Positions 4,065 to 51,031 of a DNA stretch of 64,000 bases are shown one piece after another. Position numbers and translations under genes: made by a program. The DNA comes from Candidatus Nomurabacteria bacterium (GTDB lineage: Bacteria > Patescibacteriota > Patescibacteriia > HK-STAS-PATE-3). The notes beneath the pieces were generated by a model, which saw only the letters and a program-made list of their open reading frames with translations, was not told the origin of the DNA and ran no database searches. Positions within the stretch are counted from its first letter, which is position 1. Each line of letters begins with the position of its first letter. The stretch is from positions 288,001 through 352,000 of the forward strand of contig CP060223.1 in assembly GCA_023898465.1 (NCBI GenBank). Reading direction: 5' to 3'.

Positions 4065-5090
4065 ATGCCACGTAAGACTTCTGCAAAACGACGACTCGCC
4101 ATTAACGGATTTGGCCGAATTGGACGAGCTGCTTTTAAAATTGCTTTAGAAAGTAAAAAGTTTGATATTGTCGCGATTAACGACCTGACTGATACCGAAA
4201 GTCTGGCCATGCTCCTGAAGCATGATTCGGTGTATCGCAACTTCAATCACAAGGTTGGCTTTACCAAGGATTCCCTTATTGTGGATGGTAAAAAAATTCG
4301 CATTCTGGCTGAAAAAGATCCGGCTATGTTGCCTTGGAAGCGTCTGAAGATTGACGTGGTGCTCGAATGTACTGGCCGCTTTGTGAAGGATGGCGCTGCC
4401 CGGGCCCATATCAAAGCAGGTGCCAAAGCAGCTGTCGTTTCTGCGCCAACCAAGGGCGGAGACATCCCAACAGCCTTACTCGGTGTGCGTCAACCAAAGC
4501 CCGGCGAGCAGGTCGTTTCTAACGCTTCTTGCACTACGAATAACGTCGCACCGGTCACTCGAGTGATTATGGAGAATTTCGGCGTGTTGCGAGCAGCCAT
4601 GACCACGATTCACTCCTACACGGCTGAGCAAAACTTGGTTGACGGCCCACCGCCACCATTGCACCGCGATTTACGACGTATGCGAGCTGCTGCGGTTAAC
4701 CTCGTACCAACCACTTCTGGCGCGGCTATTGCCACGACCGAGGTGATTCCTGAGCTTAAGGGCTCCTTTGATGGTTTTGCTATTCGCGTGCCAACACCAG
4801 TGGTGTCCTTGTCTGACTTCACTTTCCTGGTAAAGAAAAAGACCACTATCGAAGAAGTAAACCGAGCCATGAAAAAGGCGGCTGAGGATCCTTCCTACAA
4901 AAATGTGCTGGCCGTAAATGAAGAACCACGCGTCTCTAGCGACTTTATTGGCGACCCACATTCTGCAATAGTTGACTTACCGCTCACGAATGTGATAGGT
5001 GGCGACCTTGTCAAAATCGTGGCTTGGTATGATAATGAATGGGGATATTCAACGCGGCTGGTAGAGATGGCACAGAAAGTGCATATCTAA
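4065..5090 (+). CDS. gap: type I glyceraldehyde-3-phosphate dehydrogenase
   Basis: INGFGRIGR Rossmann start, catalytic SNASCTTN and WYDNEWGYS C-terminus. Confidence 0.95.
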   Translation: MPRKTSAKRRLAINGFGRIGRAAFKIALESKKFDIVAINDLTDTESLAMLLKHDSVYRNFNHKVGFTKDSLIVDGKKIRILAEKDPAMLPWKRLKIDVVLECTGRFVKDGAARAHIKAGAKAAVVSAPTKGGDIPTALLGVRQPKPGEQVVSNASCTTNNVAPVTRVIMENFGVLRAAMTTIHSYTAEQNLVDGPPPPLHRDLRRMRAAAVNLVPTTSGAAIATTEVIPELKGSFDGFAIRVPTPVVSLSDFTFLVKKKTTIEEVNRAMKKAAEDPSYKNVLAVNEEPRVSSDFIGDPHSAIVDLPLTNVIGGDLVKIVAWYDNEWGYSTRLVEMAQKVHI

Positions 5091-5312: not shown

Positions 5313-5381
5313 TTTGAGCAGGGCCATAATGAAGGGCTTGGCGAATTGCGTAGTTTTTGTTACCCTACGCTGGTATTTCGG

Positions 5382-5456
5382 GGCCCTATCGTCTAGTGGC
5401 TAGGACGCATGGTTCTCATCCATGTAACAGGGGTTCGATTCCCCTTAGGGCTACCA
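5382..5456 (+). tRNA. tRNA-Glu (anticodon CTC), CCA encoded
   Basis: Hand-folded cloverleaf. Acceptor GGCCCTA/TAGGGCT, D arm GTCT-AGTGGCTA-GGAC, anticodon stem CATGG/CCATG with loop TTCTCAT, T arm AGGGG-TTCGATT-CCCCT, discriminator A, then CCA. 75 nt. Confidence 0.93.
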
Positions 5457-5471
5457 GCCCGCTTAGCGGGC
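5457..5471 (+). terminator. stem-loop directly after tRNA-Glu (GCCCGC-TTA-GCGGGC)
   Basis: Perfect 6-bp GC stem starting at the base after CCA. The trailing U-tract is poor (TCTGCTG). Confidence 0.4.
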
Positions 5472-5539
5472 TCTGCTGATAAGGATAGAAGAAAGTAAAA
5501 GTGGAATGTTTAGCATGTTGTTTTATAAGTTAAGGAATC

Positions 5540-5840
5540 GAACGGGCGAGGACGTCTGCCAGCGGCAGGCGACCGCAAGCCCCGGCCTGAAGTCCCGATA
5601 GGGACGGAATGGTCGATTCCCCTTAGGGCTACCACGGGCCATTGCGCCGTGCGGACTGCGTCCGACCAGGTCGGACTCCGCCCTTACGGCGCATGTCCCT
5701 TTCCCCATTGCAAACAGTCCCTCTCGGCAGCCTCGAGGTCCTTGGTTTGCAACGGGGGCCCCGATAAGAGTGCGGGCCCAAGTGCTCGGCATTACAAAGC
5801 GTCCCAGAAAAAATGCCAGACACAAGTCTTCGGCATTTAA
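5540..5840. other. GC-rich, heavily base-paired non-coding segment (possible ncRNA or relic of foreign DNA)
   Basis: Nested helix 5644-5692: GCGCCGT/ACGGCGC enclosing GCGGA/TCCGC enclosing GTCCGAC/GTCGGAC. Long-range TTGCAAAC/GTTTGCAA pairs 5708-5715 with 5745-5752. Hairpin at 5811-5838. Only overlapping multi-frame ORFs lie here. Confidence 0.3.
5613..5634 (+). repeat. 22-nt exact direct repeat of the tRNA-Glu 3' end (copy of 5435-5456)
   Basis: TCGATTCCCCTTAGGGCTACCA occurs at 5435-5456 (T loop to CCA of the tRNA) and again at 5613-5634. Confidence 0.9.
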
Positions 5841-5927
5841 TGAGAAGAAGACGTAGGTCAACTTCAGAGTGAGTCACCACAAACATCGTCGCTGCGCTAG
5901 AGGCAGCATAATTCAGGAGGAAAAAAT

Positions 5928-6467
5928 ATGTCACGTAGCGTACTCATTTTCATCGTACTCCTCGTTATCCTCGCAGTAGGCGGTGGAATTGTTTGGTGGA
6001 TGGTCACCAACCCAAGCGAAAATAGCAACACAAATAATGCCGTTGTCGCGAATACCAACACTGAGGTGAATGCAAATGCTGCACCGAATATTGATGTACA
6101 GGCCGGTGCGGTGGATGTAGGACGAGAAGCCTTGCTGACCAGTGCGAACTTCCGCGCCAGCTCAGCTTCATTGCTCAGCGAATTTGACGGCCTAAGCGCC
6201 GCTGAAGATAAAAGCTACCTGGTTGTCTATTACATGTTGACGCCTTACGAAGGATCAAGCGAAAACGTGCCAAATCTGAACGATCAAAACGTTTCAGTCA
6301 GCAGCGGTGACACTTCCTATACACTGCAAGCAATTGGCACCACCCAGAGCGAAACTGATGGCGAAGAACTTGGCTATCTGCGTTTCGAAGTGCCTGTTGA
6401 CGCAAGCGGATTTGTCCTAACGATTTTAGACGGCGACATAGAGCAGACGATTGATCTGGGCTTTTAA
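5928..6467 (+). CDS. membrane-anchored hypothetical protein
   Basis: Strong SD (AGGAGG, 7 nt upstream). N-terminal TM helix IFIVLLVILAVGGGIVWWMV followed by an N/T-rich linker. Confidence 0.65.
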   Translation: MSRSVLIFIVLLVILAVGGGIVWWMVTNPSENSNTNNAVVANTNTEVNANAAPNIDVQAGAVDVGREALLTSANFRASSASLLSEFDGLSAAEDKSYLVVYYMLTPYEGSSENVPNLNDQNVSVSSGDTSYTLQAIGTTQSETDGEELGYLRFEVPVDASGFVLTILDGDIEQTIDLGF

Positions 6468-7666: not shown

Positions 7667-10600
7667 ATGGACTCTGCCCCATTAACACTACAAACGAAGA
7701 CACTGCAGAGGTCTTCCGATCTAAATAATTACAGACTCTATCGCGCAGCTCTTGAATGGGAGTTGATTGATCCTATTGTCATAGAAGACCGGGATGACAT
7801 GCATTCCGAAAGTAGTTGGCGTGATCGTCTTGAGCCGTATCATCATCAAGTAACTAACCTAATAACTTTTTGTCGTCGCCTACCTGTTACTTTACTGGCG
7901 GATGATGTCGGGTTAGGAAAAACAATTAGTGCTGGCCTAGTTTTAAGCGAGTTAATTTCGCGCGGGAGAATTTCAAAAATATTAATAGTTTGCCCAAAAA
8001 TACTTCGAGATCAGTGGAAAGAAGAATTGGAAATAAAGTTCCGAATTCCGTCCACAATTGTGACAGGAAGAGAATTAATTACGGCAAAGCCTCCTGAAGA
8101 ACCAGGAGCGGTAATTACCACATACAATACGGCCAGACTGTATTTAGATAGAATTGACCAGAATGGTTTTGAAATATTGATACTTGATGAGGCGCATAAA
8201 TTGCGGAATCTATATGGTGTTGACCCAACACCTCAAGTTGCAATTAAATTCCGTAAAGCTCTGGCTGACCGGATGTTTAAGTACGTATTAATGTTAACTG
8301 CAACGCCGATCCAGAACAGACTATGGGATCTCTACTCGTTGGTTGACTTATTAACCGTTGCACGCGGCCATGAAAATCCCTTTGGAACGCCAGGTATTTT
8401 TGCGAGAAAATTTATTGCAGATAGTCGCACACAAGCGCGTCAGCTTAATCCGGAGATGCGGGATGAGTTTCGCTCAATTATTTACGGTTATATGTCTCGG
8501 GTTCGTCGTGGAGATGCAAAACTCCACTTCCCAGAGCGGGTAGTACAGTTGCATAAAGTTGACCCAACACCAGAAGAATTGCAGTTGATCGGTGTGGTCG
8601 GAAAATCTATACAACAACTGAATGCGCTTACACAAATTGTAATCCTCCAAGCTTTGGTGAGTAGTCCAGAAGCGCTAATAAAGATGTTAGAAGGAATGGC
8701 TAAAAAAGGAACCGTACCGCGTGAGGTGTTGGCGAACGTTAAGGAATCAGCCAAAGAAATTCAAATCACTACAAAACTAAAAGGTTTGGGCGCGTTAGTT
8801 GAAAAACTTAGAAAGGAGCAACCCAATACTTGGCGGGTGGTAGTTTTTACAAGATGGCGAGAAACTCAAACAACTATCGAAACTTTTCTTGAAAAGCAAG
8901 GAGTAAAATGCGGCTTGATAAATGGCGATTCAAGTAAGCGAAATCAGGAAACAATCCAAAGATTTAAAAAAGACTTACCAGACATTAATGTAATTATTTC
9001 TACTGAAGCAGGTTCGGAGGGCGTTAACCTTCAGGCCGCTAATGTTTTGGTTAATTACGATCTCCCCTGGAATCCAATGATAGTGGAACAAAGAATAGGT
9101 CGTATTCAAAGACTTGCTTCTAATTATGCAAATGTTTCTATTTTTAATATTGTTTTGCAAAATACCTTTGAAGAATATATTGTAGGGCGCTTGATGGAAA
9201 AGTTGCAGATGGCTTCTCATGCAATTGGGGATATTGAAGCACTATTGGAAGCATCCGGCATTGATGAAGGTGAAGAAAATGGCTCAAGTGGTTTTGAAGA
9301 AAAAATTCGCCAGTTAGTAGTTGCATCTTTAGCTGGAAAAGATGTTGAGCAGGCAACTCGTAAAGCTGAACAGAGTATTTCAGAAGCTAAAACAGAATTA
9401 GACCATGAAGAAAAGAACATTAATGCTTTACTTGGGGGGATGAGTGATTCTCTAGATTCTGGTCCAAGATGTCCGAAGCTTCCTCAAACTACTAAGTCGA
9501 TGGATGTCCGTGATTTTACTACGGCTGCTCTTATGAGCTTAGGCGCGGAACTACATCCAAAAAAGGATGGTTTATTAGTTTCACAACTTGCTGGGAAAAA
9601 AGAATTAATCCGATTTGATAATAACACTCTGAGCAGTGAAGAGGAGAGTGTCTTATATGCACCGGGAACTTCAACTTTTGAACGCTTAGTCCATAAAGTT
9701 GCAAATGTAGGAAAACACATTGTTGAAGACCTTGATAAAAACCCCCAACAGCAAATTGAGAAAGTAAGTCGTCAATGGGTCGAAAGTTTTGGCGGAGACT
9801 TCGAAAATGTAACGGTAGAGGACGTTTCTCGATGTTTTGCAGGAGTAGCAATAATTCGTGCAAGATCAACAGTAGCTCACGATAGTTATGAGCGTCTCAT
9901 TGAGGTTTCGTGCGCTCCCACTGAGCATTTCAGTTTTGTGACAAGAACGGGATTGGAACCCATCGGAGACTATATTGAAAATCCGACATCTGTTGGTGCG
10001 CTTTCAGAAAAATTAATTGAAAAAGCCAGCCAAGACTCGAGTATTCTTGAGTTCTGTAGATTTTATTTAGAACGAAGATCTCAAGAAATTGCCTCCGCAG
10101 GAAATGACGAAAGAAAAAAGAAAAAGCTTGAGGATGAGTTTACGCCCCGTCTTGAATTTTCCCTAGTCGGTCTTGAGGGCAAGGTTCATCGGATAGTTAA
10201 AAATCAGGTCTCTTATAGAATTGAACGTGAGGGCCAATACAAAAGTACCCTCATGATAACCCCCTCTTCTGGGCAAGTTGATATGCCGGGGATGGGACAA
10301 TGCATGAAAACAGGTAAGACTGTACCGAGCGATTGCTTAGCAAAGTGCGAAATAAGCGGACTTATAGTATTGCGGCATTTTCTTGATCAATCAGAGATCA
10401 GTAATCGACTGGCGCTCCCTGAGCACATCGTTTTATGTACGTTAAGCAACAAGCGAGTGCTAGCGGACGAAGCTATAAAATCAGATGTTACGGGCAAACT
10501 AGTCGCAAAGAAGTTTTTAAAAACATCTTCTCTGAGTGGCAAATTCGCTGAACCACAGTTCATTAACACTTGTGAGTTTACAAAAACAGAAGTTCTGGAA

Positions 10601-11194
10601 AGCGAAATTGCGGTCAGCCAGATTTCAGGAAAAAGATATCGCATTGATGAGCAACTTAAATCCGCAGTTTCAGGAAAACTAGGCCATCGACAAGAATTTG
10701 TAGCAAGTAGTATTTCATCAGCCCCACTTCTTGAAGAAGAAGCCATTCGTTCGGTCACTGGAAAATTTTGTGCACCAATGGAAGCGAGGCCCTGCACTTG
10801 GAGTGGTCGAAAGTGTCACCCCGAAGACCTTAGGACTTGCGAGTTGACCGGAGTCCAAATTCATTCAGAGTACGTAACGCTCGAACCACCAATTCGTTTA
10901 GAAACCCTAAATAATCTTTTGAATGGCACGAGGAGCAAATCTGACAAATTGGAAGTATGGCCTTCACTTTCAAATAGCGTTACAGCTTTATTAAAAGCAA
11001 AACGTTGTAAAATTGAAACAGCAGAAGTTTCACCTAGTGACGATATTTTGGCCGCTTCTATAGAGCTTCGAACTTTTCTAGGCCTGCGCGTGAGTCACAT
11101 TGGCGTACTTTATTCAATAAAGGATGGATCCGTAGTCGGGCGTGTTGCTAGAGGCAAGCGTGGTGATAAGGGCTGGAATCAAACTAAGAACTAA
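7667..11194 (+). CDS. SNF2-family ATPase/helicase with long C-terminal extension containing 13 tandem 15-aa repeats
   Basis: Motif I DDVGLGKT (GLGKT = aa 82-86), motif II DEAH (aa 174-177), motif III TATP, and motif VI QRIGRIQR (aa 475-482). About 690 further residues have no family I recognise. Low GC. Confidence 0.9.
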   Translation: MDSAPLTLQTKTLQRSSDLNNYRLYRAALEWELIDPIVIEDRDDMHSESSWRDRLEPYHHQVTNLITFCRRLPVTLLADDVGLGKTISAGLVLSELISRGRISKILIVCPKILRDQWKEELEIKFRIPSTIVTGRELITAKPPEEPGAVITTYNTARLYLDRIDQNGFEILILDEAHKLRNLYGVDPTPQVAIKFRKALADRMFKYVLMLTATPIQNRLWDLYSLVDLLTVARGHENPFGTPGIFARKFIADSRTQARQLNPEMRDEFRSIIYGYMSRVRRGDAKLHFPERVVQLHKVDPTPEELQLIGVVGKSIQQLNALTQIVILQALVSSPEALIKMLEGMAKKGTVPREVLANVKESAKEIQITTKLKGLGALVEKLRKEQPNTWRVVVFTRWRETQTTIETFLEKQGVKCGLINGDSSKRNQETIQRFKKDLPDINVIISTEAGSEGVNLQAANVLVNYDLPWNPMIVEQRIGRIQRLASNYANVSIFNIVLQNTFEEYIVGRLMEKLQMASHAIGDIEALLEASGIDEGEENGSSGFEEKIRQLVVASLAGKDVEQATRKAEQSISEAKTELDHEEKNINALLGGMSDSLDSGPRCPKLPQTTKSMDVRDFTTAALMSLGAELHPKKDGLLVSQLAGKKELIRFDNNTLSSEEESVLYAPGTSTFERLVHKVANVGKHIVEDLDKNPQQQIEKVSRQWVESFGGDFENVTVEDVSRCFAGVAIIRARSTVAHDSYERLIEVSCAPTEHFSFVTRTGLEPIGDYIENPTSVGALSEKLIEKASQDSSILEFCRFYLERRSQEIASAGNDERKKKKLEDEFTPRLEFSLVGLEGKVHRIVKNQVSYRIEREGQYKSTLMITPSSGQVDMPGMGQCMKTGKTVPSDCLAKCEISGLIVLRHFLDQSEISNRLALPEHIVLCTLSNKRVLADEAIKSDVTGKLVAKKFLKTSSLSGKFAEPQFINTCEFTKTEVLESEIAVSQISGKRYRIDEQLKSAVSGKLGHRQEFVASSISSAPLLEEEAIRSVTGKFCAPMEARPCTWSGRKCHPEDLRTCELTGVQIHSEYVTLEPPIRLETLNNLLNGTRSKSDKLEVWPSLSNSVTALLKAKRCKIETAEVSPSDDILAASIELRTFLGLRVSHIGVLYSIKDGSVVGRVARGKRGDKGWNQTKN
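10301..10882 (+). repeat. intragenic tandem array: 13 units of 15 codons (one unit has 14) inside the SNF2 gene
   Basis: The units, in order: CMKTGKTVPSDCLAK, CEISGLIVLRHFLDQ, SEISNRLALPEHIVL, CTLSNKRVLADEAIK, SDVTGKLVAKKFLKT, SSLSGKFAEPQFINT, CEFTKTEVLESEIAV, SQISGKRYRIDEQLK, SAVSGKLGHRQEFVA, SSISSAPLLEEEAIR, SVTGKFCAPMEARP, CTWSGRKCHPEDLRT, CELTGVQIHSEYVTL. Confidence 0.85.
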
Positions 11195-11195
11195 T

Positions 11196-12686
11196 ATGAA
11201 CCCTCTACTTACAAAAACCGATTATCTTCTTTACCGGGAATGCCCAAAGAATGTTTGGTATAAAATCCAAAAACCTGAATTGTATGCTACATCGGAGCTA
11301 ACAGAGTTTGAAAAATCGATAATGGAAACAGGTAATGAGGTTGAAAAGATTGCAAGGCAACTTTTTCCAAACGGGGTGTTAGTAACTTATCGTGATGCGC
11401 GCGGTCAAGCTGAGACACAAAAGCTATTGGCGGAGAACAAGGATGTGATTTTTCAGCCAGTTTTTGTCAAAAATAACTTTTTGGCTGCTATTGATGTTCT
11501 ACAAAAAGAAAAGAATGGCAAGGGCTACAATGTTTACGAAATAAAATCGACTAGTGATGTAGATAAGAAAACACATTTTCACGACCTAGCATTTCAAGTA
11601 AACGTTCTCAGAATGACAGGCCTGGGAATTAATAAATCATTTGTCATTCATCTAAACTCTGAATATATTCGAAAGGGAGAAATTGAGCTGGATCAGTTAT
11701 TTAAAGTATCAGATGTGACGGATGAAGTAGAAAGTCTTTTACCGGATGTTGCGACTGAGGCGGAAGAAGCATTGAAGTATATTAGCCAAACTTCTGAACC
11801 AGAGGGGTACTGCTGCTGTATTTATAAAGGTCGATCAAGGCATTGTTCAACCTTTCAGCTAGCGAACCCCGAAGTACCCGAATATAGTGTCCACGATATT
11901 TCTAGGATAGGGGTAAGCAAGGCTAAATTAAAAGAGCTAATTGACGGAAGTATTTTTCACCTGGACAAGATTCCGCCACACATTAAATTAAGCGAAATTC
12001 AACAAGGTCAAGTTGAAACCTATAAATTGAATAAGGTATTAGTAGATAAGGAAAGAATTGCGGAAGAATTTAGTGGTCTCACATTCCCACTTTATTTTCT
12101 TGATTATGAAACATTTCCATCAGCAATACCAAGATATGATGGCTTTTCACCATATAAACAAATTCCGTTCCAGTATTCTGTTTACAAACTAGATTCAGTC
12201 GAGAGTGAGCCAACTCATTTTGATTTTTTGTACTCTGGTCCCGAAGACCCCAGCAAGCACTTTGCCGAGTCTTTAAGGGAACATATCGGGGATAAAGGCT
12301 CGATCATCGTTTGGCATAAAGACTTCGAGTGTGGCAGAAATAATGAAATAGGTAGTCGAATTCCTACTTCGAAGGCTTTTTTTGACTCTGTTAATCAGCG
12401 AGTATACGATCTCGAAGACATTTTCAAGAAACAATACCACGTTCATCGAGATTATAAGGGAAGCACATCTATTAAAAACGTATTGCCTGTTTTAGTGCCA
12501 GAATTAACGTATAAAGACCTTGAAATTCGTGATGGTGGCAGTGCAGCGGATAGTTGGGACAAAATAATTAGTGGTGTATATAACGAGACAGAGAAAGAAA
12601 AGGTAATAAAAGATTTAAAGATTTATTGTGGTCTTGATACATTTGCAATGTATGCTATTTGGAATTGCTTGAACAAGCTACTCTAA
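11196..12686 (+). CDS. DUF2779-type protein: Cas4-like PD-(D/E)xK nuclease fused to a DEDDy-like 3'-5' exonuclease domain
   Basis: ATG lies 1 nt after the SNF2 stop. N-terminus TKTDYLLYRECPKNVWYK, then D100...E115-I-K117 (AAIDVL...YEIKS). Cys set C16 plus C206-C207-C208...C217. C-terminal half has FLDYET (D303/E305), WHKDFE (D376) and Y477-CGL-D481. Confidence 0.7.
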   Translation: MNPLLTKTDYLLYRECPKNVWYKIQKPELYATSELTEFEKSIMETGNEVEKIARQLFPNGVLVTYRDARGQAETQKLLAENKDVIFQPVFVKNNFLAAIDVLQKEKNGKGYNVYEIKSTSDVDKKTHFHDLAFQVNVLRMTGLGINKSFVIHLNSEYIRKGEIELDQLFKVSDVTDEVESLLPDVATEAEEALKYISQTSEPEGYCCCIYKGRSRHCSTFQLANPEVPEYSVHDISRIGVSKAKLKELIDGSIFHLDKIPPHIKLSEIQQGQVETYKLNKVLVDKERIAEEFSGLTFPLYFLDYETFPSAIPRYDGFSPYKQIPFQYSVYKLDSVESEPTHFDFLYSGPEDPSKHFAESLREHIGDKGSIIVWHKDFECGRNNEIGSRIPTSKAFFDSVNQRVYDLEDIFKKQYHVHRDYKGSTSIKNVLPVLVPELTYKDLEIRDGGSAADSWDKIISGVYNETEKEKVIKDLKIYCGLDTFAMYAIWNCLNKLL

Positions 12687-12690
12687 ACCT

Positions 12691-13392
12691 ATGAGCTTTC
12701 TTAAGATTTTTAGTGATGATTCTAAAGACAAGCCAAAAGAAAATGATAGTCGGAAACCTGAATGTCCATACTGTCAGGGCGTTTTAGTTAAAATTCCTGC
12801 TAGAAAAACAAAATGTTTTCACTGTGGGAAATATATTTTTGTACGAACACAGACAAAGGACAGAAAGCTCGTTTTGGTTACTGAAGAAAATTCGGCCGCG
12901 ATAGACTCTGAATGGGAGTCAAAACAAGCCGCTACGATCACTTCATTGGTGGAGAAAGTAGATTTTACAAAGAAAAAAGAAGGTCTGCGCGAAGGGTTTG
13001 GGGACAAGGAACCCTCCGTTAGTGACATAAAGTGGGGCTTGTGGAACAAGAGGCTTCAGGAAGCAATGAAACGCAATGATTTTTCAGAACTTTCAGGAAT
13101 ATATTTTCAAATGGCTCTGCGCTTGCACGAAAGTGGAAAAGACAGCTTTAAACTTCAGGGCCAGGCTCAAAAAATGTTTTTGTTTAAAGAAAAGCAAAGC
13201 GGTGTTGTTTCTAGCGTAGAGGTTTTTTCTAGAGATGGCTGTGAAGAATGTAAGAAAATAAACGGAAAGAAATTTGTTATTTTTGAAGCACTAAAACTCA
13301 TGCCACTACCCGTTCAATCCTGCACAAACAAACTGAATAAGAATGCGCCCAATGGTTGGTGTCGATGCACTTTTCTTCCTTTTATAGATTAA
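12691..13392 (+). CDS. zinc-ribbon protein with C-terminal CxxC...C...CxC module
   Basis: Starts 4 nt after the previous stop. N-terminal CPYC-x17-CFHC ribbon, a helical middle, then the C-terminal CEECKKINGKKF...LPVQSC...NGWCRCTFLP. Confidence 0.7.
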   Translation: MSFLKIFSDDSKDKPKENDSRKPECPYCQGVLVKIPARKTKCFHCGKYIFVRTQTKDRKLVLVTEENSAAIDSEWESKQAATITSLVEKVDFTKKKEGLREGFGDKEPSVSDIKWGLWNKRLQEAMKRNDFSELSGIYFQMALRLHESGKDSFKLQGQAQKMFLFKEKQSGVVSSVEVFSRDGCEECKKINGKKFVIFEALKLMPLPVQSCTNKLNKNAPNGWCRCTFLPFID

Positions 13393-35577: not shown

Positions 35578-37158
35578 ATGGCAACGAAAAAAGGGACTAG
35601 CACAAAAACTTCTCGAGAAGCACATCTTTGGCCCGCAGTATTGTTAGTCATTGATGGCTTTGGTCACGCGCCAGCCGGCCCAGGGAATGCTGTTACCCTG
35701 GCCAAGACGCCGAACCTAACAAAAATTATGAAAGAAAATCCCTGGACCCTACTTGACGCATCTGGTCCAGCAGTTGGTTTACCCCCGGGTCAGGCAGGAA
35801 ACTCCGAAGCTGGCCATATGAACATCGGGGCAGGTCGAGTTGTATTGCAAGATAGCGTGCATATCACGAAAGAAATTGAAGATGGCCGCTTCTTTAAAAA
35901 TGCCGCATTCCTAGATGCTATCCACCACTGTCAAAAACGCAACAGCCGTGTGCATTTGATGGGGTTACTTTCTAACGAACAGAGTGGGCATAGTAATCCG
36001 GGTCATTTGCAAGCACTCTTAAAGCTCATGCGGCAAAAAAAAGTGAAAGAAGTCTATTTACATCTTTTCACTGATGGTCGCGATACACCTCCCCGTAGCG
36101 GCCTCGGCATGCTTCATAAGTTAGAAAAAACTTTGCGACCAAATGAGCGGGTTGTCAGCATCGCCGGACGTCTATGGGCAATGGATCGTAAGAAAAATTG
36201 GCAGCGAACAGATGCCTCATATCATATGCTTATTGAGGGACAAGGTCATCAAGTAAAATCCGCCTCAGAAGCCATCAGTCAAGGCTATGCGCATGGTACG
36301 ACTGATGAATTTATCGAACCCTCTGTCATATTTGAGAAAGATAAGCCGGTCGGTCGAATCGAGGACGGTGATGCAGTCATTTACTTTAATTTACGTTCTG
36401 ATCGCGCCCGGCAGCTTACCAAGCCTTTTGTGCAGGATAACTTCAAAGAATTCCGTCGCCGCAAAGTCATGCACGACTTAGCCTTTGTGGCTATGACCGA
36501 CTTTGGCCCAGACTTGAATCATTTATTGACTGCGTATCCAAGCGTTGATATTCAGGGCACTTTGCCGATGGCCCTAAAAGGGAAGCGGCAAATGTATATT
36601 GCAGAGAATGAAAAATTCGCCCATGTAACGTATTTCTTAAACGGTGGCTATGCTAACCCGGTGGCAAATGAAGATCGCATTATGATTCCTTCACCTGCGG
36701 TTGCCCATTATGATGAGGTGCCTGGGATGTCCACCCCGGGGATTACCTTGCGTACACTTTCCGTTTTGCAAAAAAAGCAGTACGACTTTATTGGCATGAA
36801 CTTTGCCAATTGCGATATGGTAGGGCATACCGGAAATCTCAAAGCCGCCATCACTGCTGTCGAAACCGTTGATGAGGCGATTGGAACTTTATACAAAGAA
36901 ATCCAAAAGCAGGATGGGTTACTTTTTATAACTGCCGATCATGGCAATGTAGAAAGTATGCTCTTCCCAGAAACCGGTGAGGCCGATACTGAACATTCGC
37001 AAAACCCGGTTCCATTCATTATCGCTGGCAAAGTTCCGAAGCAGTTTAACATTTTGAAAAAAGATGGCGTGTTGGGTCAGGTAGCTCCGACCGTGCTTGA
37101 TACTTTGGGGATCCCCATACCGACAGAAATGAAACTCAGTTCACTATGGCAAAAGTAA
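35578..37158 (+). CDS. gpmI: 2,3-bisphosphoglycerate-independent phosphoglycerate mutase, copy 1
   Basis: VIDGFG, GNSEAGHMNIGAGR, TDGRDTPP, MVGHTG, TADHGN. Confidence 0.9.
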   Translation: MATKKGTSTKTSREAHLWPAVLLVIDGFGHAPAGPGNAVTLAKTPNLTKIMKENPWTLLDASGPAVGLPPGQAGNSEAGHMNIGAGRVVLQDSVHITKEIEDGRFFKNAAFLDAIHHCQKRNSRVHLMGLLSNEQSGHSNPGHLQALLKLMRQKKVKEVYLHLFTDGRDTPPRSGLGMLHKLEKTLRPNERVVSIAGRLWAMDRKKNWQRTDASYHMLIEGQGHQVKSASEAISQGYAHGTTDEFIEPSVIFEKDKPVGRIEDGDAVIYFNLRSDRARQLTKPFVQDNFKEFRRRKVMHDLAFVAMTDFGPDLNHLLTAYPSVDIQGTLPMALKGKRQMYIAENEKFAHVTYFLNGGYANPVANEDRIMIPSPAVAHYDEVPGMSTPGITLRTLSVLQKKQYDFIGMNFANCDMVGHTGNLKAAITAVETVDEAIGTLYKEIQKQDGLLFITADHGNVESMLFPETGEADTEHSQNPVPFIIAGKVPKQFNILKKDGVLGQVAPTVLDTLGIPIPTEMKLSSLWQK

Positions 37159-38744
37159 GCTCCTCAGTTTATCGACCCGTCGTGCTTGTTGTCTACGATG
37201 GTTTTGGTGTCGCACCAGCTTCTCGCGGCAATGCCATTAGCTTAGCCAAGACACCACACTTTGACGATATACTCCGGCATTACCCGGCAATTACCCTACA
37301 AGCTTCTGGCGAGGCGGTTGGTTCGCTCTGGGGGGAGTTGGGGAATTCAGAAGTCGGACACATGAATATGGGCGCCGGCCGCATCGTTTATCAGGATTTG
37401 CCGAGAATCACCAAGGCAGTTGCCGACGGCAGTATCATGAAAAATCCAGCCTTGCTTGATGCGGTAAAGCACGTGAAGGAGAAGGGGAGCAGTCTCCATA
37501 TTATGGGATTGATGAGCTCAGGAGGTGTGCATAGTTTTAATGAGCACGCCTATGCTTTACTCGAATTTGCCAAGCATGAAAAAATCGACAAAGTATTTAT
37601 TCATGCCTTCTTAGACGGTCGCGATACGCCGCATAATAGCGCAGAGCGTTTTATTACCAAACTTCAAGCGACAATACAGAGTTTAGGCGTAGGGAAGATT
37701 GCCTCACTCTCTGGACGCTACTGGGCCATGGATCGAGATAATCGTTGGGATAGGATTGAAAAAGCGTATCGCGTATTAGTTGACGGCAATGCAGAACAAA
37801 GCGCAACTGATCCGATGCAAGCAATTCACGACAGCTATGCAAAGAAAGTATACGATGAGGAATTTATACCTACAGTTATCACTGATGCGGCCGGCGCCCC
37901 GATTGGGAAGATAAACAATAACGACGCAGTCATTTTCTTTAATTTCCGACCAGATCGCGCTCGCCAGTTAACCAAGGCATTTGTGCTGCCAGGTTTTGAA
38001 AAGTTTTCTCGTGTCTACATGCCAGATCTCTTTTTTGTGACAATGACTGAGTACGAAAAGGATTTGCCGGTGAGTATTGCCTTCCCACCTGAGCATGTGG
38101 CAGAGCCTCTAGCAAAAGTCCTCTCTGACGCCGGCAAGACACAACTCCATATTGCCGAGACGGAAAAGTATGCCCATGTCACTTTCTTCTTTAACGGAGG
38201 CCGAGAAAAAGCCTATCCGCAAGAGGACCGCATACTTATTCCTTCACCGGCAGTGAATTCCTATGATCAGAAGCCGGACATGAGCGCTCGTGAAATAACC
38301 GATCGCGTGATTGAAGAAATTCAGAGCATGAAGTATGACTTGATTGTTATTAATTACGCAAACGCAGATATGGTGGGTCACACCGGCAAATTGCCAGCGA
38401 CGATTGAGGCAATTGAAATGTTGGATGAGATGACAGCCCGGCTCAAAGAAATTGTCGAGGAGGTAAACGGTGTGTTGCTACTAACTGCTGATCACGGCAA
38501 TGCTGAGGATATGATTAATTTACAAACCGGCTTTTTACAAAAAGAGCACACGACAAATCCTGTCCCATGTATTTTGGTAGGAAAGGCTTTTCGTTCAACG
38601 AAAGATAAAGACACCATGTCGCTCGATCTTTCTTTGCAGACGCCACGAGGATTACTTTCTGATGTTGCACCAACTATTCTCGAGCTGATGGGAGTTGCCA
38701 AACCAAAATCCATGACTGGAAAGAGTTTGCTCCATGTGTTTTAG
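37146..38744 (+). CDS. gpmI: 2,3-bisphosphoglycerate-independent phosphoglycerate mutase, copy 2
   Basis: VYDGFG, GNSEVGHMNMGAGR, LDGRDTPH, MVGHTG, TADHGN. Overlaps copy 1 by 13 nt. Confidence 0.9.
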   Translation: MAKVSSSVYRPVVLVVYDGFGVAPASRGNAISLAKTPHFDDILRHYPAITLQASGEAVGSLWGELGNSEVGHMNMGAGRIVYQDLPRITKAVADGSIMKNPALLDAVKHVKEKGSSLHIMGLMSSGGVHSFNEHAYALLEFAKHEKIDKVFIHAFLDGRDTPHNSAERFITKLQATIQSLGVGKIASLSGRYWAMDRDNRWDRIEKAYRVLVDGNAEQSATDPMQAIHDSYAKKVYDEEFIPTVITDAAGAPIGKINNNDAVIFFNFRPDRARQLTKAFVLPGFEKFSRVYMPDLFFVTMTEYEKDLPVSIAFPPEHVAEPLAKVLSDAGKTQLHIAETEKYAHVTFFFNGGREKAYPQEDRILIPSPAVNSYDQKPDMSAREITDRVIEEIQSMKYDLIVINYANADMVGHTGKLPATIEAIEMLDEMTARLKEIVEEVNGVLLLTADHGNAEDMINLQTGFLQKEHTTNPVPCILVGKAFRSTKDKDTMSLDLSLQTPRGLLSDVAPTILELMGVAKPKSMTGKSLLHVF

Positions 38745-45891: not shown

Positions 45892-46281
45892 ATGCACAAG
45901 GACATTGAATTATATAACAGGGCTTTAACGGCAAAAGAAAAAGCCATTTGCACAACGCTTGCTCACAGCATTGACGAGAGTCTTAAGTTGGCAGAAAGTA
46001 AAATATGGCACGCCCATCCGGTTTGGTTCTTAGCCGGTAATCCCATTGTCGGGTATAGTAAAATGAAGGAAGGTGTTCGGATACTTTTTTGGAGCGGCCA
46101 ATCCTTTGATGAGGAAAAGTTACAACCCGAAGGAAGTTTTAAAGCAGCTGAAGCCAGATATACTAATGTGAAGCAAATGAATAAAACTGACCTTAAAAGG
46201 TGGCTAAAAAAGGCAAAAGAAATTCAGTGGGACTACAAAAATATAGTCAAGCGAAAAGGACGACTTGAGAGGTTGAAATAG
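45892..46281 (+). CDS. DUF1801 (YdhG-like) domain protein
   Basis: 129 aa. HPVWFLAGNPIVGYSKMKEGVRILFWSG resembles DUF1801. Recalled from memory; not searched. Confidence 0.55.
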   Translation: MHKDIELYNRALTAKEKAICTTLAHSIDESLKLAESKIWHAHPVWFLAGNPIVGYSKMKEGVRILFWSGQSFDEEKLQPEGSFKAAEARYTNVKQMNKTDLKRWLKKAKEIQWDYKNIVKRKGRLERLK

Positions 46282-46324
46282 CGTTGTGTTAACTAGACGG
46301 TTCTTGATGGTGAGTTTTTTTATT

Positions 46325-46513
46325 TAAACAAAGAAAAAGACCCCCCATCAGATGTGCTAATGGGGGGTAGGGACGGGTCTCGGCGGCACCTTAGGGCACC
46401 AGGGGTCCGCTCTGTTCTACGGTCAACTTTTTCACGTCTCAAGGGACGTGCCAAAGAGTGCTGAACAATCACAGACCGCGTTGGCCACTGTATGCACTCG
46501 CTCACCATCCCGT
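46325..46513 (-). ncRNA. candidate orphan ncRNA (~190 nt) with own promoter and terminator
   Basis: On the minus strand: TTGACG (46548-46543), 17-nt spacer, TAGCTT (46525-46520). GC-rich body with a CACGTC/GACGTG hairpin. Terminator ACCCCCCAT-11 nt-ATGGGGGGT followed by CTTTTTCTTTG (46368-46325). Confidence 0.35.
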
Positions 46514-49387: not shown

Positions 49388-49954
49388 ATGAAACGGGGGA
49401 TCAAGGTACTGCTTATTTCCGACGCTTGGATTAATCTTGCCTTAGGCATGATAGGTCCGATTTACGCTATTTTTGTGGAAGACATTGGCGGGGACCTCCT
49501 GGACGCGAGCTGGGCGTATTCCGTTTACATGATCACTGCTGGAGTTGTGATGTTTTTGCTTGGTAAGTGGGAGGATCGCGCCAAACACAAGGAAAAGTTT
49601 GTGGTTATTGGTTATGCGCTTATTAGCCTAGCGTGTTTCATGTATATTTTTGTGAATAGTCAGATTATGCTTTTGTTCACGCAGGCAGTACTTGGACTTT
49701 CTCTCGCCGTGCTCAGTCCGTCATTTGATGCCATTTATTCACATTTTGTGAAGCGTAAAGAAGAGGCCTCAAATTGGGGTATTTGGGAAGCGATGAGTTA
49801 TGTAGTGACCGCCATTGCCGCGATCATTGGAGGCTATGTCGCGGACGGTTTCGGTTTCCGCACCCTTTTCATTGTCATGTTTGTTATTTCCTTATTTGGT
49901 ACAAGTTATAGCATGCATTTGTATCGAGGTAAGAAGTATTTGAATCGGGGATGA
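49388..49954 (+). CDS. half-size (6-TM) MFS-like transporter protein
   Basis: 188 aa and 6 hydrophobic helices. The loop motif GKWEDRAKHK resembles the MFS TM2-3 loop. Confidence 0.5.
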   Translation: MKRGIKVLLISDAWINLALGMIGPIYAIFVEDIGGDLLDASWAYSVYMITAGVVMFLLGKWEDRAKHKEKFVVIGYALISLACFMYIFVNSQIMLLFTQAVLGLSLAVLSPSFDAIYSHFVKRKEEASNWGIWEAMSYVVTAIAAIIGGYVADGFGFRTLFIVMFVISLFGTSYSMHLYRGKKYLNRG

Positions 49955-50010: not shown

Positions 50011-50490
50011 CTATTCACCGCTTGATCCGGCGCCGATCGAGGCTCCAAACACCGTCACTCCGTCGCGTTGTCCGATCATCAAGTCAACCGGTGGGAGTTG
50101 GATGAACTTCATCACATAAGGGTTCAGATACTGCAGTACCCGGAAGTGGGCAGCGTATCCGAGTATCGGGTCAAATCCGTCCGAAGGTTGGAAGCCAAGC
50201 GTTGCTGATACACCGAGGAAAGGAAGCGGTTGCACATGGACATGGCCGCCCAACATCCAGAGGATTTCCTTGTCCTCGACCTGCAGGCAGACTTGGGGTC
50301 CGACCGAGAGGTGGCTGAGAGGAAAAAGTCGATGGTACTGACCGTCGAGACGCAGTTCGTCTTCTTCATCGACTCTGGTGTCGCCACCAACGATGATTGC
50401 TCCGAACTTGGGATGAGTATCGTCGTCAGCCAGGCTTGTCCCAGCCATCAAGCCTAGCAGTAACAGTGAAAAAAGAACGCACACTTTCAT
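50011..50490 (-). CDS. orphan secreted protein (signal peptide), elevated GC
   Basis: SD GGAGGG 6 nt upstream of ATG 50490. MKVCVLFSLLLLGLMAGTSLADDD is signal-like. No family recognised. Confidence 0.6.
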   Translation of the reverse strand: MKVCVLFSLLLLGLMAGTSLADDDTHPKFGAIIVGGDTRVDEEDELRLDGQYHRLFPLSHLSVGPQVCLQVEDKEILWMLGGHVHVQPLPFLGVSATLGFQPSDGFDPILGYAAHFRVLQYLNPYVMKFIQLPPVDLMIGQRDGVTVFGASIGAGSSGE

Positions 50491-50578
50491 GGCACACCCT
50501 CCGTATGCATAGTGGAAACTGACGCTTACTATGGTACTCCAGGAGGGACTATCTCGCAAAAAGTGGAGAAATAGCAAC

Positions 50579-50612: not shown

Positions 50613-51031
50613 GTGCTGACGTGCGCCGGATGACTGCTCCGCCTTAGGTGGAGAGGAAAGTCCGAACACCCCCCAAGCCCCCCATTTTTGAGAGGTTTGT
50701 GGAAGTAGGTCGTTCCGAAAGGGAACCGAGCAATTGGTTGTAAGCTTTCGGCCGAATAACCAATGGTTTAGGGAAAGTGTCACAGAGACAATACTGCCGA
50801 TGATCTCGCTTAGCGGGATACAGGTAATAGGTGAAAAGTAAGGGCCTAAGAATCCTTTCTCTTCATAGGTGACTATGAGGAGTGAAAAACCCGACCTGGT
50901 GCAAGATCGCATAGGTCTAGTCATTCGACTGGACGGGTAGATCGCATGATCCCGACGGCGACGTCGGGGCTAGAGAGATAGTCATCCCTCATTATGAGGA
51001 CAGAATTCGGCTTATAGGTGTGCGTCAGCAC
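50613..51031 (+). ncRNA. rnpB: RNase P RNA (bacterial type A)
   Basis: P1 pairs GTGCTGACG (50613-50621) with CGTCAGCAC (51023-51031). Conserved GAGGAAAGTCCGAAC, ACAGAGACAATACTGCC and ACAGAATTCGGCTTATAGG blocks are present. Confidence 0.92.

Follow-up and report, generated by a model that had tools for sequence, protein, structure and literature searches.

In site-specific integration, an element enters a tRNA gene and supplies it with a replacement 3' end, and the original tRNA 3' end is displaced to the far side of the insert. Streptococcal CIMEs are integrase-less, att-flanked remnants of integrative elements and are kilobases long. Phages of the CTX type, which carry single-stranded DNA, exploit Xer, possess hairpin attachment sites and target dif. 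The Islander signature of a genomic island consists of a tDNA and a displaced fragment that mark the ends of the island, and Islander rejects intervals of less than 2 kb (PMC4383910). The T loop, the T/acceptor junction and the anticodon loop are recognised crossover subsites (PMC4383910; sublocation classes of Williams, 2002, as cited therein), and small deletions near the discriminator have been reported in some displaced fragments (PMC4383910). Fragments of tRNA genes that stem from integration are pervasive (PMC9897764).

Here, we analysed two short blocks on the plus strand of a 64-kb window, by which we mean the whole stretch of DNA under analysis. The window lies on a 1.08-Mb contig of an uncultivated Patescibacteria (CPR) MAG labelled Candidatus Nomurabacteria, and the two blocks are 41 kb apart. 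Block 1 (5599-5634) is composed of TAGGGACGG (5599-5607), the 13-nt spacer aatggtcgattcc and CCTTAGGGCTACCA (5621-5634), and is followed by CGGG. Block 2 (46368-46401) is composed of TAGGGACGG (46368-46376), the 12-nt spacer gtctcggcggca, CCTTAGGGC (46389-46397) and ACCA up to 46401, and is followed by GGGG. Re-reading the window confirmed the initial annotation in the exact sequences and coordinates of both blocks and in its description of two 9-mers in the same order with 13- versus 12-nt spacing, succeeded by ACCA and a G-run. It was also right that the second 9-mer plus ACCA is the end of tRNA-Glu, which is intact over 22 nt at 5613-5634 and lacks one base in block 2.

The identity between the blocks is limited to 9 + 9 + 4 nt (22 positions). 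The gapped pattern TAGGGACGG-N-CCTTAGGGC had exactly two matches in the 64-kb window, namely the two known copies, and none in 100 shuffles. Within the window, a third copy of the block with up to four mismatches was not found, and neither shared 9-mer had copies outside both blocks, apart from the true tRNA end. When the spacers and the flanks of 30-60 nt of block 1 and block 2 were compared, their similarity did not exceed that of shuffled controls, and local, semi-global and blastn-short alignments detected no extended homology between the two spacers. The claim of the initial annotation that both loci carry the same arm-plus-core sequence was overstated: only 9 nt of the arm are common, the flanks align no further, and TAGGGACGG has no counterpart in the homologous unit of the related contig L006 introduced below. 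The exact gapped pattern had zero matches in GTDB genomes, JGI metagenomes and IMG/VR; the source genome is therefore absent from these collections, and no intact parent element is known. Nor did blastn against a phage database with both spacers as queries return a match.

The first block lies in the spacer behind an intact tRNA-Glu(CTC) gene with encoded CCA (5382-5456, plus strand; ARAGORN, and Rfam tRNA at 62.5 bits). This gene is the target gene and corresponds to the attL side. Its final 22 nt, TCGATTCCCCTTAGGGCTACCA (5435-5456), comprise canonical positions 55-76, from the T loop to CCA. Repeat search and alignment located an identical, attR-type copy at 5613-5634, in the same orientation downstream of the tRNA and offset by 178 nt from start to start; it includes the second shared 9-mer and ACCA (5621-5634). 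The left part of the 178-nt unit (5457-5533) reads as a hairpin behind the tRNA, GCCCGCTTAGCGGGC, and an AT-rich stretch after it, and is missing from the empty sites of two relatives (L086 and L093). It is succeeded by an inverted complement of the repeated tRNA end (5530-5541), in which TTAA + GGAATCGA is predicted to pair with TTAG + TCGATTCC of the repeat across 71 nt, forming a helix of 4 + 8 bp with a CC bulge. The GC-rich interior (5542-5612) contains two predicted hairpins, the second of which, GTCCC-GATA-GGGAC, holds the TAGGGACGG copy at 5599-5607 that the 9-mer search had located.

The remaining 293 nt of the 471-nt spacer before ORF179 (5635-5927, plus strand) are GC-rich and strongly self-pairing, and their folding is far more stable than that of shuffles on both strands (z about -4). 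Relative to shuffles, the fold z-score of the whole spacer (5457-5927) was -4.1 on the plus strand, and that of 5530-5900 was -3.9 on the plus and -4.2 on the minus strand. The stretch 5635-5927 has no Rfam match, is missing from the relatives and may be older element debris. By eye, we also noticed a promoter-like site at 5934-5905 and, downstream of it, a minus-strand terminator-like hairpin with TTTTTT (about 5845-5806).

We recovered relatives via GAPDH, whose gene is located just upstream of tRNA-Glu. Two closer relatives have the syntenic locus TIM-gap-tRNA-Glu-ORF17x-GT4. Contig L086 (GAPDH 73% identical) has the arrangement TIM-gap-small ORF-tRNA-Glu(CTC)-ORF175-GT4, with 63 nt from the tRNA to the ORF179 homolog and no repeat. 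In L093/L094, which are likewise 73% identical in GAPDH and represent the closest relative by UPF0182 as well (62%), the tRNA-Glu differs from that of the window at 2 positions and is followed by 96 AT-rich nt, again without a repeat, and then by ORF172-GT4-hrcA-grpE-hsp20-dnaK. The 471-nt spacer of the window (5457-5927) is hence a lineage-specific insertion. In the more distant L006 (Candidatus Kerfeldbacteria, GAPDH 63%), the locus is orthologous, and an ORF179-like gene and GT4 follow downstream. The tRNA-Glu of L006 differs from that of the window, and its final 22 nt, TCGAATCCCCATGGCGGTACCA, recur 162 nt downstream; this repeat starts at the same T-loop position as the tRNA fragment of block 1. 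Its inverted complement, TGCC + GGGATTCGA, pairs with GGCG + TCGAATCCC by 4 + 9 bp across 77 nt. Between the hairpins of the window and L006, A-U is swapped to U-A at tRNA position 59, which is a compensatory change; the pairing of the acceptor strand is lineage-specific, and the next bases, GGGC.AGGA, are similar. A truncated resolvase-like ORF, scoring under the Pfam cut-off, is located 130 nt beyond the L006 repeat and outside the unit.

The tRNA-Glu genes of further relatives are also accompanied by fragments. In three contigs (L087-L089), 21 nt from the 5' part of their own tRNA-Glu (positions 9-29) recur exactly about 100 nt upstream of the gene, and 46 nt downstream of it lies a 3' fragment, CCGGTGGGGCTACCA, that matches the tRNA-Glu of L091 and not their own; in L087, the fragments occupy 5801-5838 and 6040-6054. 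Since L087 carries both a 5' fragment and a 3' fragment of a foreign lineage, tRNA-Glu is a recurrent target in the clade. A generic search for an inverted complement combined with a repeated tRNA end recovered L006 and found nothing in IMG/VR or JGI. The sole IMG/VR match to the 22-mer was discarded as a candidate, because it belongs to a tRNA-Glu gene that is complete and lies on a viral contig of 332 kb (L004, IMGVR_UViG_3300033405_000002; tRNA-Glu(CTC) at 4611-4684, with the last 22 nt as in the window). This contig may belong to a phage of this CPR group. A sister-strain contig (L085, Logan SRR17818317) ends at window position 5375, 7 nt before tRNA-Glu, the kind of assembly break that a repeated or variable tRNA locus would be expected to cause.

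Compared with the displaced fragments described by Islander, block 1 agrees in several respects. An intact tRNA is accompanied by a cognate 3'-end copy downstream on the same strand, which constitutes the tDNA island signature; the copy starts in the T loop, a known crossover subsite, as it does in L006; and the site is unoccupied in the related genomes L086 and L093/L094. Unlike Islander-type islands, no integrase gene is present between the tRNA and the fragment, and the interval is 178 nt rather than a foreign segment of 2-200 kb. The unit resembles CIMEs in that attL-like and attR-like copies flank a segment with no recombination genes, in that the tRNA is a hot spot used by other elements and in that the resolvase fragment of L006 adjoins the unit, yet CIMEs do not share the small size of 162-178 nt or the inverted complement of the core. 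We noted a further likeness, as an analogy only, to the hairpin attachment sites of CTX-type phages: in both the window and L006, inverted and direct copies of the target lie about 65-90 nt apart and pair across tens of nucleotides, so that the duplex would mimic the chromosomal target. Here, however, the target is a tRNA gene rather than dif, there are no phage genes, and phage or plasmid genes were found at neither block locus.

Block 1 is thus probably a T-loop-type displaced tRNA-Glu fragment in a small, integrase-less insert. The exact fragment from the T loop to CCA, the empty sites in L086 and L093/L094 and the same architecture in L006 give good support to the part of the initial annotation that regarded block 1 as a scar of a tRNA-Glu-targeting element; for block 2, the same claim is plausible and unproven. 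The patchy distribution of the block-1 hairpin, absent from the closest relatives and present in the distant L006, favours a mobile origin. Two facts are evidence against a scar: a Pfam scan of ORFs of at least about 110 aa over the whole 64 kb found no integrase (PF00589), resolvase or transposase domains, and the unit is far below the size of an autonomous element. The size of 162-178 nt, the lack of a recombinase and the built-in inverted complement are unusual features of block-1-type units. Degenerate tRNA-Glu pseudogenes were rejected as an origin of both blocks, as their upstream parts align to the 5' part of the tRNA no better than shuffles.

The compact architecture could also be read in functional terms. 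The unit of 160-180 nt might be an entity in its own right, either a miniature, non-autonomous integrative element moved in trans, whose folded single strand would mimic the T-arm/acceptor duplex of the tRNA gene, or a co-transcribed hairpin RNA that would act on tRNA-Glu; block 2 would then be a second landing site or a trans-acting antisense partner. We regard this as quite improbable. To our knowledge, tRNA-targeting elements that lack an integrase and measure about 170 nt have not been described. Far less probable still is that the 22-mer serves as the guide or homing spacer of an RNA-guided element, such as a CRISPR-associated transposon or TnpB/IscB, with the upstream hairpins as the scaffold. 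The layout of a structured RNA followed by a copy of the target of about 21-22 nt would suit such an element, and the GGTT preceding the matching tRNA sequence presumably resembles a Cas12k PAM. Against this, cas, tns, tnpB and iscB genes and repeats are missing from the window, Rfam gave no match to HEARO or IS605-type RNAs, and the first 8-9 nt of the putative guide are paired with the inverted complement. An origin of the 22-mer as a CRISPR spacer was dismissed as well, because the window contains no repeat array.

The surroundings of block 2 are different. The block starts 87 nt past the stop codon of a DUF1801 gene (45892-46281, plus strand; Pfam), in the spacer before UPF0182. The best homologs of DUF1801 are 73-76% identical, and all named ones are from Bacteroidota (Niastella, Pinibacter, Cyclobacteriaceae) and not from CPR. 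This identity equals or exceeds that of UPF0182 and GAPDH to their nearest CPR relatives, which indicates that DUF1801 was horizontally acquired, judging from sequence comparison in an apparent single-gene transfer across phyla. The same-strain contig L096 is identical through block 2. In the sister-strain contig L095 (91.5% nucleotide identity), from the same sample as L085 (93.6% identity), the homology ends just after the DUF1801 stop codon, and block 2 is absent from the 960 nt that follow the break. In L001, the slot between rnhA and UPF0182 holds other genes and no DUF1801. Block 2 therefore sits at a synteny break, a feature for which the initial annotation had proposed to check the copies, and both copies lie in non-coding, lineage-variable DNA.

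Within block 2, the TAGGGACGG copy found by the 9-mer search (46368-46376) precedes a 13-nt fragment of the tRNA-Glu 3' end, CCTTAGGGC-ACCA (46389-46401, plus strand), identified by sequence and alignment. The start of the fragment falls within the T-stem 3' strand, a subsite of the T stem/acceptor junction type, and T72 is missing. Like the displaced fragments described by Islander, it starts at a crossover subsite, and a small deletion near the discriminator is known from some of those; unlike them, it has no nearby tRNA gene, and core genome fills the interval from the tRNA to block 2. An equally good reading of CCTTAGGGC-ACCA is that a different tRNA, with the acceptor strand TTAGGGC, ends in this sequence and that nothing is missing from it. 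We found no tRNA gene, recombinase, inverted partner or arm homology at the block-2 locus. A scar of a tRNA end is a plausible description of block 2.

Abutting block 2, a strong minus-strand hairpin of 12 pairs followed by TCTTTTTCTTT (46340-46368) has the appearance of an intrinsic terminator. Hairpins also occur in L095, where two near-identical copies of AAAAAAGACGACCTCTTGATGGCGGGTCGTCG at about 800-840 and 1320-1360 flank a minus-strand ORF of 115 aa. A degenerate version of this L095 hairpin is seen at about 46290-46312 of the window, and the hairpin at 46340-46368 resembles its inverse.

Could the resemblance between the two blocks be accidental? Block 1 would then be an integration scar and block 2 no more than spacer next to a terminator hairpin. 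Several observations speak for this. Over the whole window, we counted about 6 other accidental collinear pairs of double 9-mers where about 4 are expected, which makes the general argument of the initial annotation, that two collinear 9-mers are unlikely by chance, weaker than it appeared. The spacers and flanks lack any similarity, the first 9-mer is not kept in the L006 homolog, block 2 is without a tRNA, a recombinase and an inverted partner, and exact pieces around an unrelated spacer are what chance matches look like. For block 1 in particular, however, the 51-nt region was matched by a double 9-mer in just 30 of 20,000 shuffles (p ~1.5e-3), with ACCA uncounted. Moreover, the adjoining ACCA, together with the second 9-mer being a tRNA end, reduces the chance probability about 100-fold further by our own estimate, and the location of both copies in non-coding, lineage-variable DNA also argues against coincidence. 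A chance origin of the match is unlikely, and we consider the account that includes it to be unlikely as a whole, albeit worth weighing.

The exact short pieces and the free spacer would also suit pairing in trans, which leads to a possible role of the blocks as functional RNAs. The tRNA-Glu transcript might include a hairpin RNA with an ACCA tail, or a minus-strand sRNA might span 46330-46512, with a 3' region in antisense to both block 1 and the end of tRNA-Glu, in which case base pairing would preserve the pieces. A divergent sRNA antisense to block 2 is possible because the strong minus-strand terminator follows directly after the block-2 antisense and there is no minus-strand gene upstream for it to end. 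A promoter-like TTGACG-17-TAGCTT was spotted by eye at 46547-46519, both spacers fold better than shuffles, and the long hairpin of block 1 co-varies between the window and L006. The covariation concerns block 1 versus L006 only and not block 1 versus block 2, though, and for the block-2 core, folding was no more stable than in shuffles (z +1.3). A promoter scan returned nothing at block 2. When windows were ranked by duplex energy with the block-2 antisense, block 1 came about 12th of 5112, and chance sites equalled its energy; since the duplex energy was not outstanding, pairing in trans between the two was rejected.

Neither block has an Rfam match, even at E <= 10, and ARAGORN gives no tmRNA and no extra tRNA; in the window, the two programs report just the two true tRNAs and the RNase P RNA. 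As candidates, tmRNA, two-piece tmRNA, T-box, YrlA and other Rfam families were all searched for and absent from the blocks. Like tmRNA, YrlA and the 3' external transcribed spacers that act as sRNA sponges, block 1 places a T-loop/acceptor/ACCA end in a tRNA trailer. Unlike them, the blocks have neither an acceptor 5' strand nor a T-stem, are not kept in close relatives and share no common secondary structure. The absence of the unit from the closest relatives also speaks against a conserved RNA gene. The initial annotation had offered a small RNA family with a tRNA-like tail as its second option; the lack of a common fold, of Rfam and ARAGORN signals, of a third copy in the window and of any exact match in the three public collections leaves it unsupported. 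On balance, we judge a functional RNA at the blocks to be improbable.

The order and orientation of the loci formally fit a single genomic island of 41 kb bounded by tRNA-Glu and block 2, since the intact tRNA precedes a 3' fragment that lies farther along the same strand. The interval encodes GT4 glycosyltransferase, hrcA-grpE-hsp20-dnaK-dnaJ, dus, tkt, rpiB and rpe, and also alaS, ssb, pgk, eno, two gpmI copies, ackA, PFOR, recJ and rnhA. As these are housekeeping genes without an integrase among them, tRNA-Glu and block 2 are not the bounds of one island. In addition, L093 has GT4-hrcA-grpE-hsp20-dnaK after its tRNA-Glu, and L001, from the same genome, has recJ-rnhA upstream of UPF0182, in each case with no tRNA fragment nearby. 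Gene content and synteny with L093 and L001 thus refute a single island, whose probability we put close to nil.

A few other features of the window deserve mention. Between GT4 and hrcA, which are adjacent in L093, lies a 6-kb block of low GC content (0.37-0.42; 7667-13392) that contains genes for an SNF2 helicase (DrmD/BrxH-like in PADLOC) and a DUF2779/Cas4-like nuclease as well as an ORF of 233 aa, and that has the look of a small defence island lacking a recombinase. Two cofactor-independent phosphoglycerate mutase paralogs (526 and 532 aa) are arranged in tandem and overlap at 35578-38744. The class A RNase P RNA (50618-51030, plus strand; 164.8 bits) is flanked by an MFS gene fragment and a sugar transferase and has a 68-nt insertion in place of an 11-nt stretch of the model near model position 75. 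The fragment is a 188-aa ORF (49388-49954) with the first half only of an MFS transporter domain, possibly a truncated gene; it is followed by a minus-strand ORF of 188 aa with no Pfam match (50011-50577) that adjoins the RNase P RNA gene.

We tentatively favour, at somewhat below even confidence, the reading that both blocks are integration scars and not RNA genes, block 2 having been made by a related element and TAGGGACGG being a common arm site. Block 1 (5613-5634) would represent the displaced tRNA 3' end after a crossover in the T loop, and the remaining insert would be the 178 nt without a recombinase, including an element-side arm with TAGGGACGG. The inverted complement within this arm (5530-5541) may pair with the displaced end to form the long hairpin. 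Block 2 (46389-46401) would be a shorter, damaged fragment whose start lies at the T-stem/acceptor junction and that either travelled to the edge of the acquired DUF1801 cassette of about 0.75 kb or stayed behind there. Situated 12-13 nt upstream of the fragment, TAGGGACGG could be the arm site of two related elements, for example a site for a recombinase or an accessory protein. We infer both the shared origin of block 2 and this role of TAGGGACGG, and a tyrosine-type integrase presumably made the junctions. As evidence against a common element, true relatives ought to have more of the arm in common, and three short pieces that agree perfectly around an unrelated spacer do not match the outcome of simple decay from a single ancestor.

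Integration scars as such are a known kind of feature. The small hairpin form of the first scar is unusual, and this miniature form might be the sole new part. If both blocks are scars of integration, the finding would amount to routine genome archaeology: in a branch of the Candidate Phyla Radiation that has been sampled poorly, it would show tRNA-Glu(CTC) to be a gene where mobile DNA lands repeatedly, and it would flag three small acquired pieces of DNA in the window: the 471-nt insert, the 6-kb defence-like island and the DUF1801 cassette from Bacteroidota. It would gain more weight if the hairpin units, which we found independently in two distant lineages, turned out to be a working mini-element or RNA.
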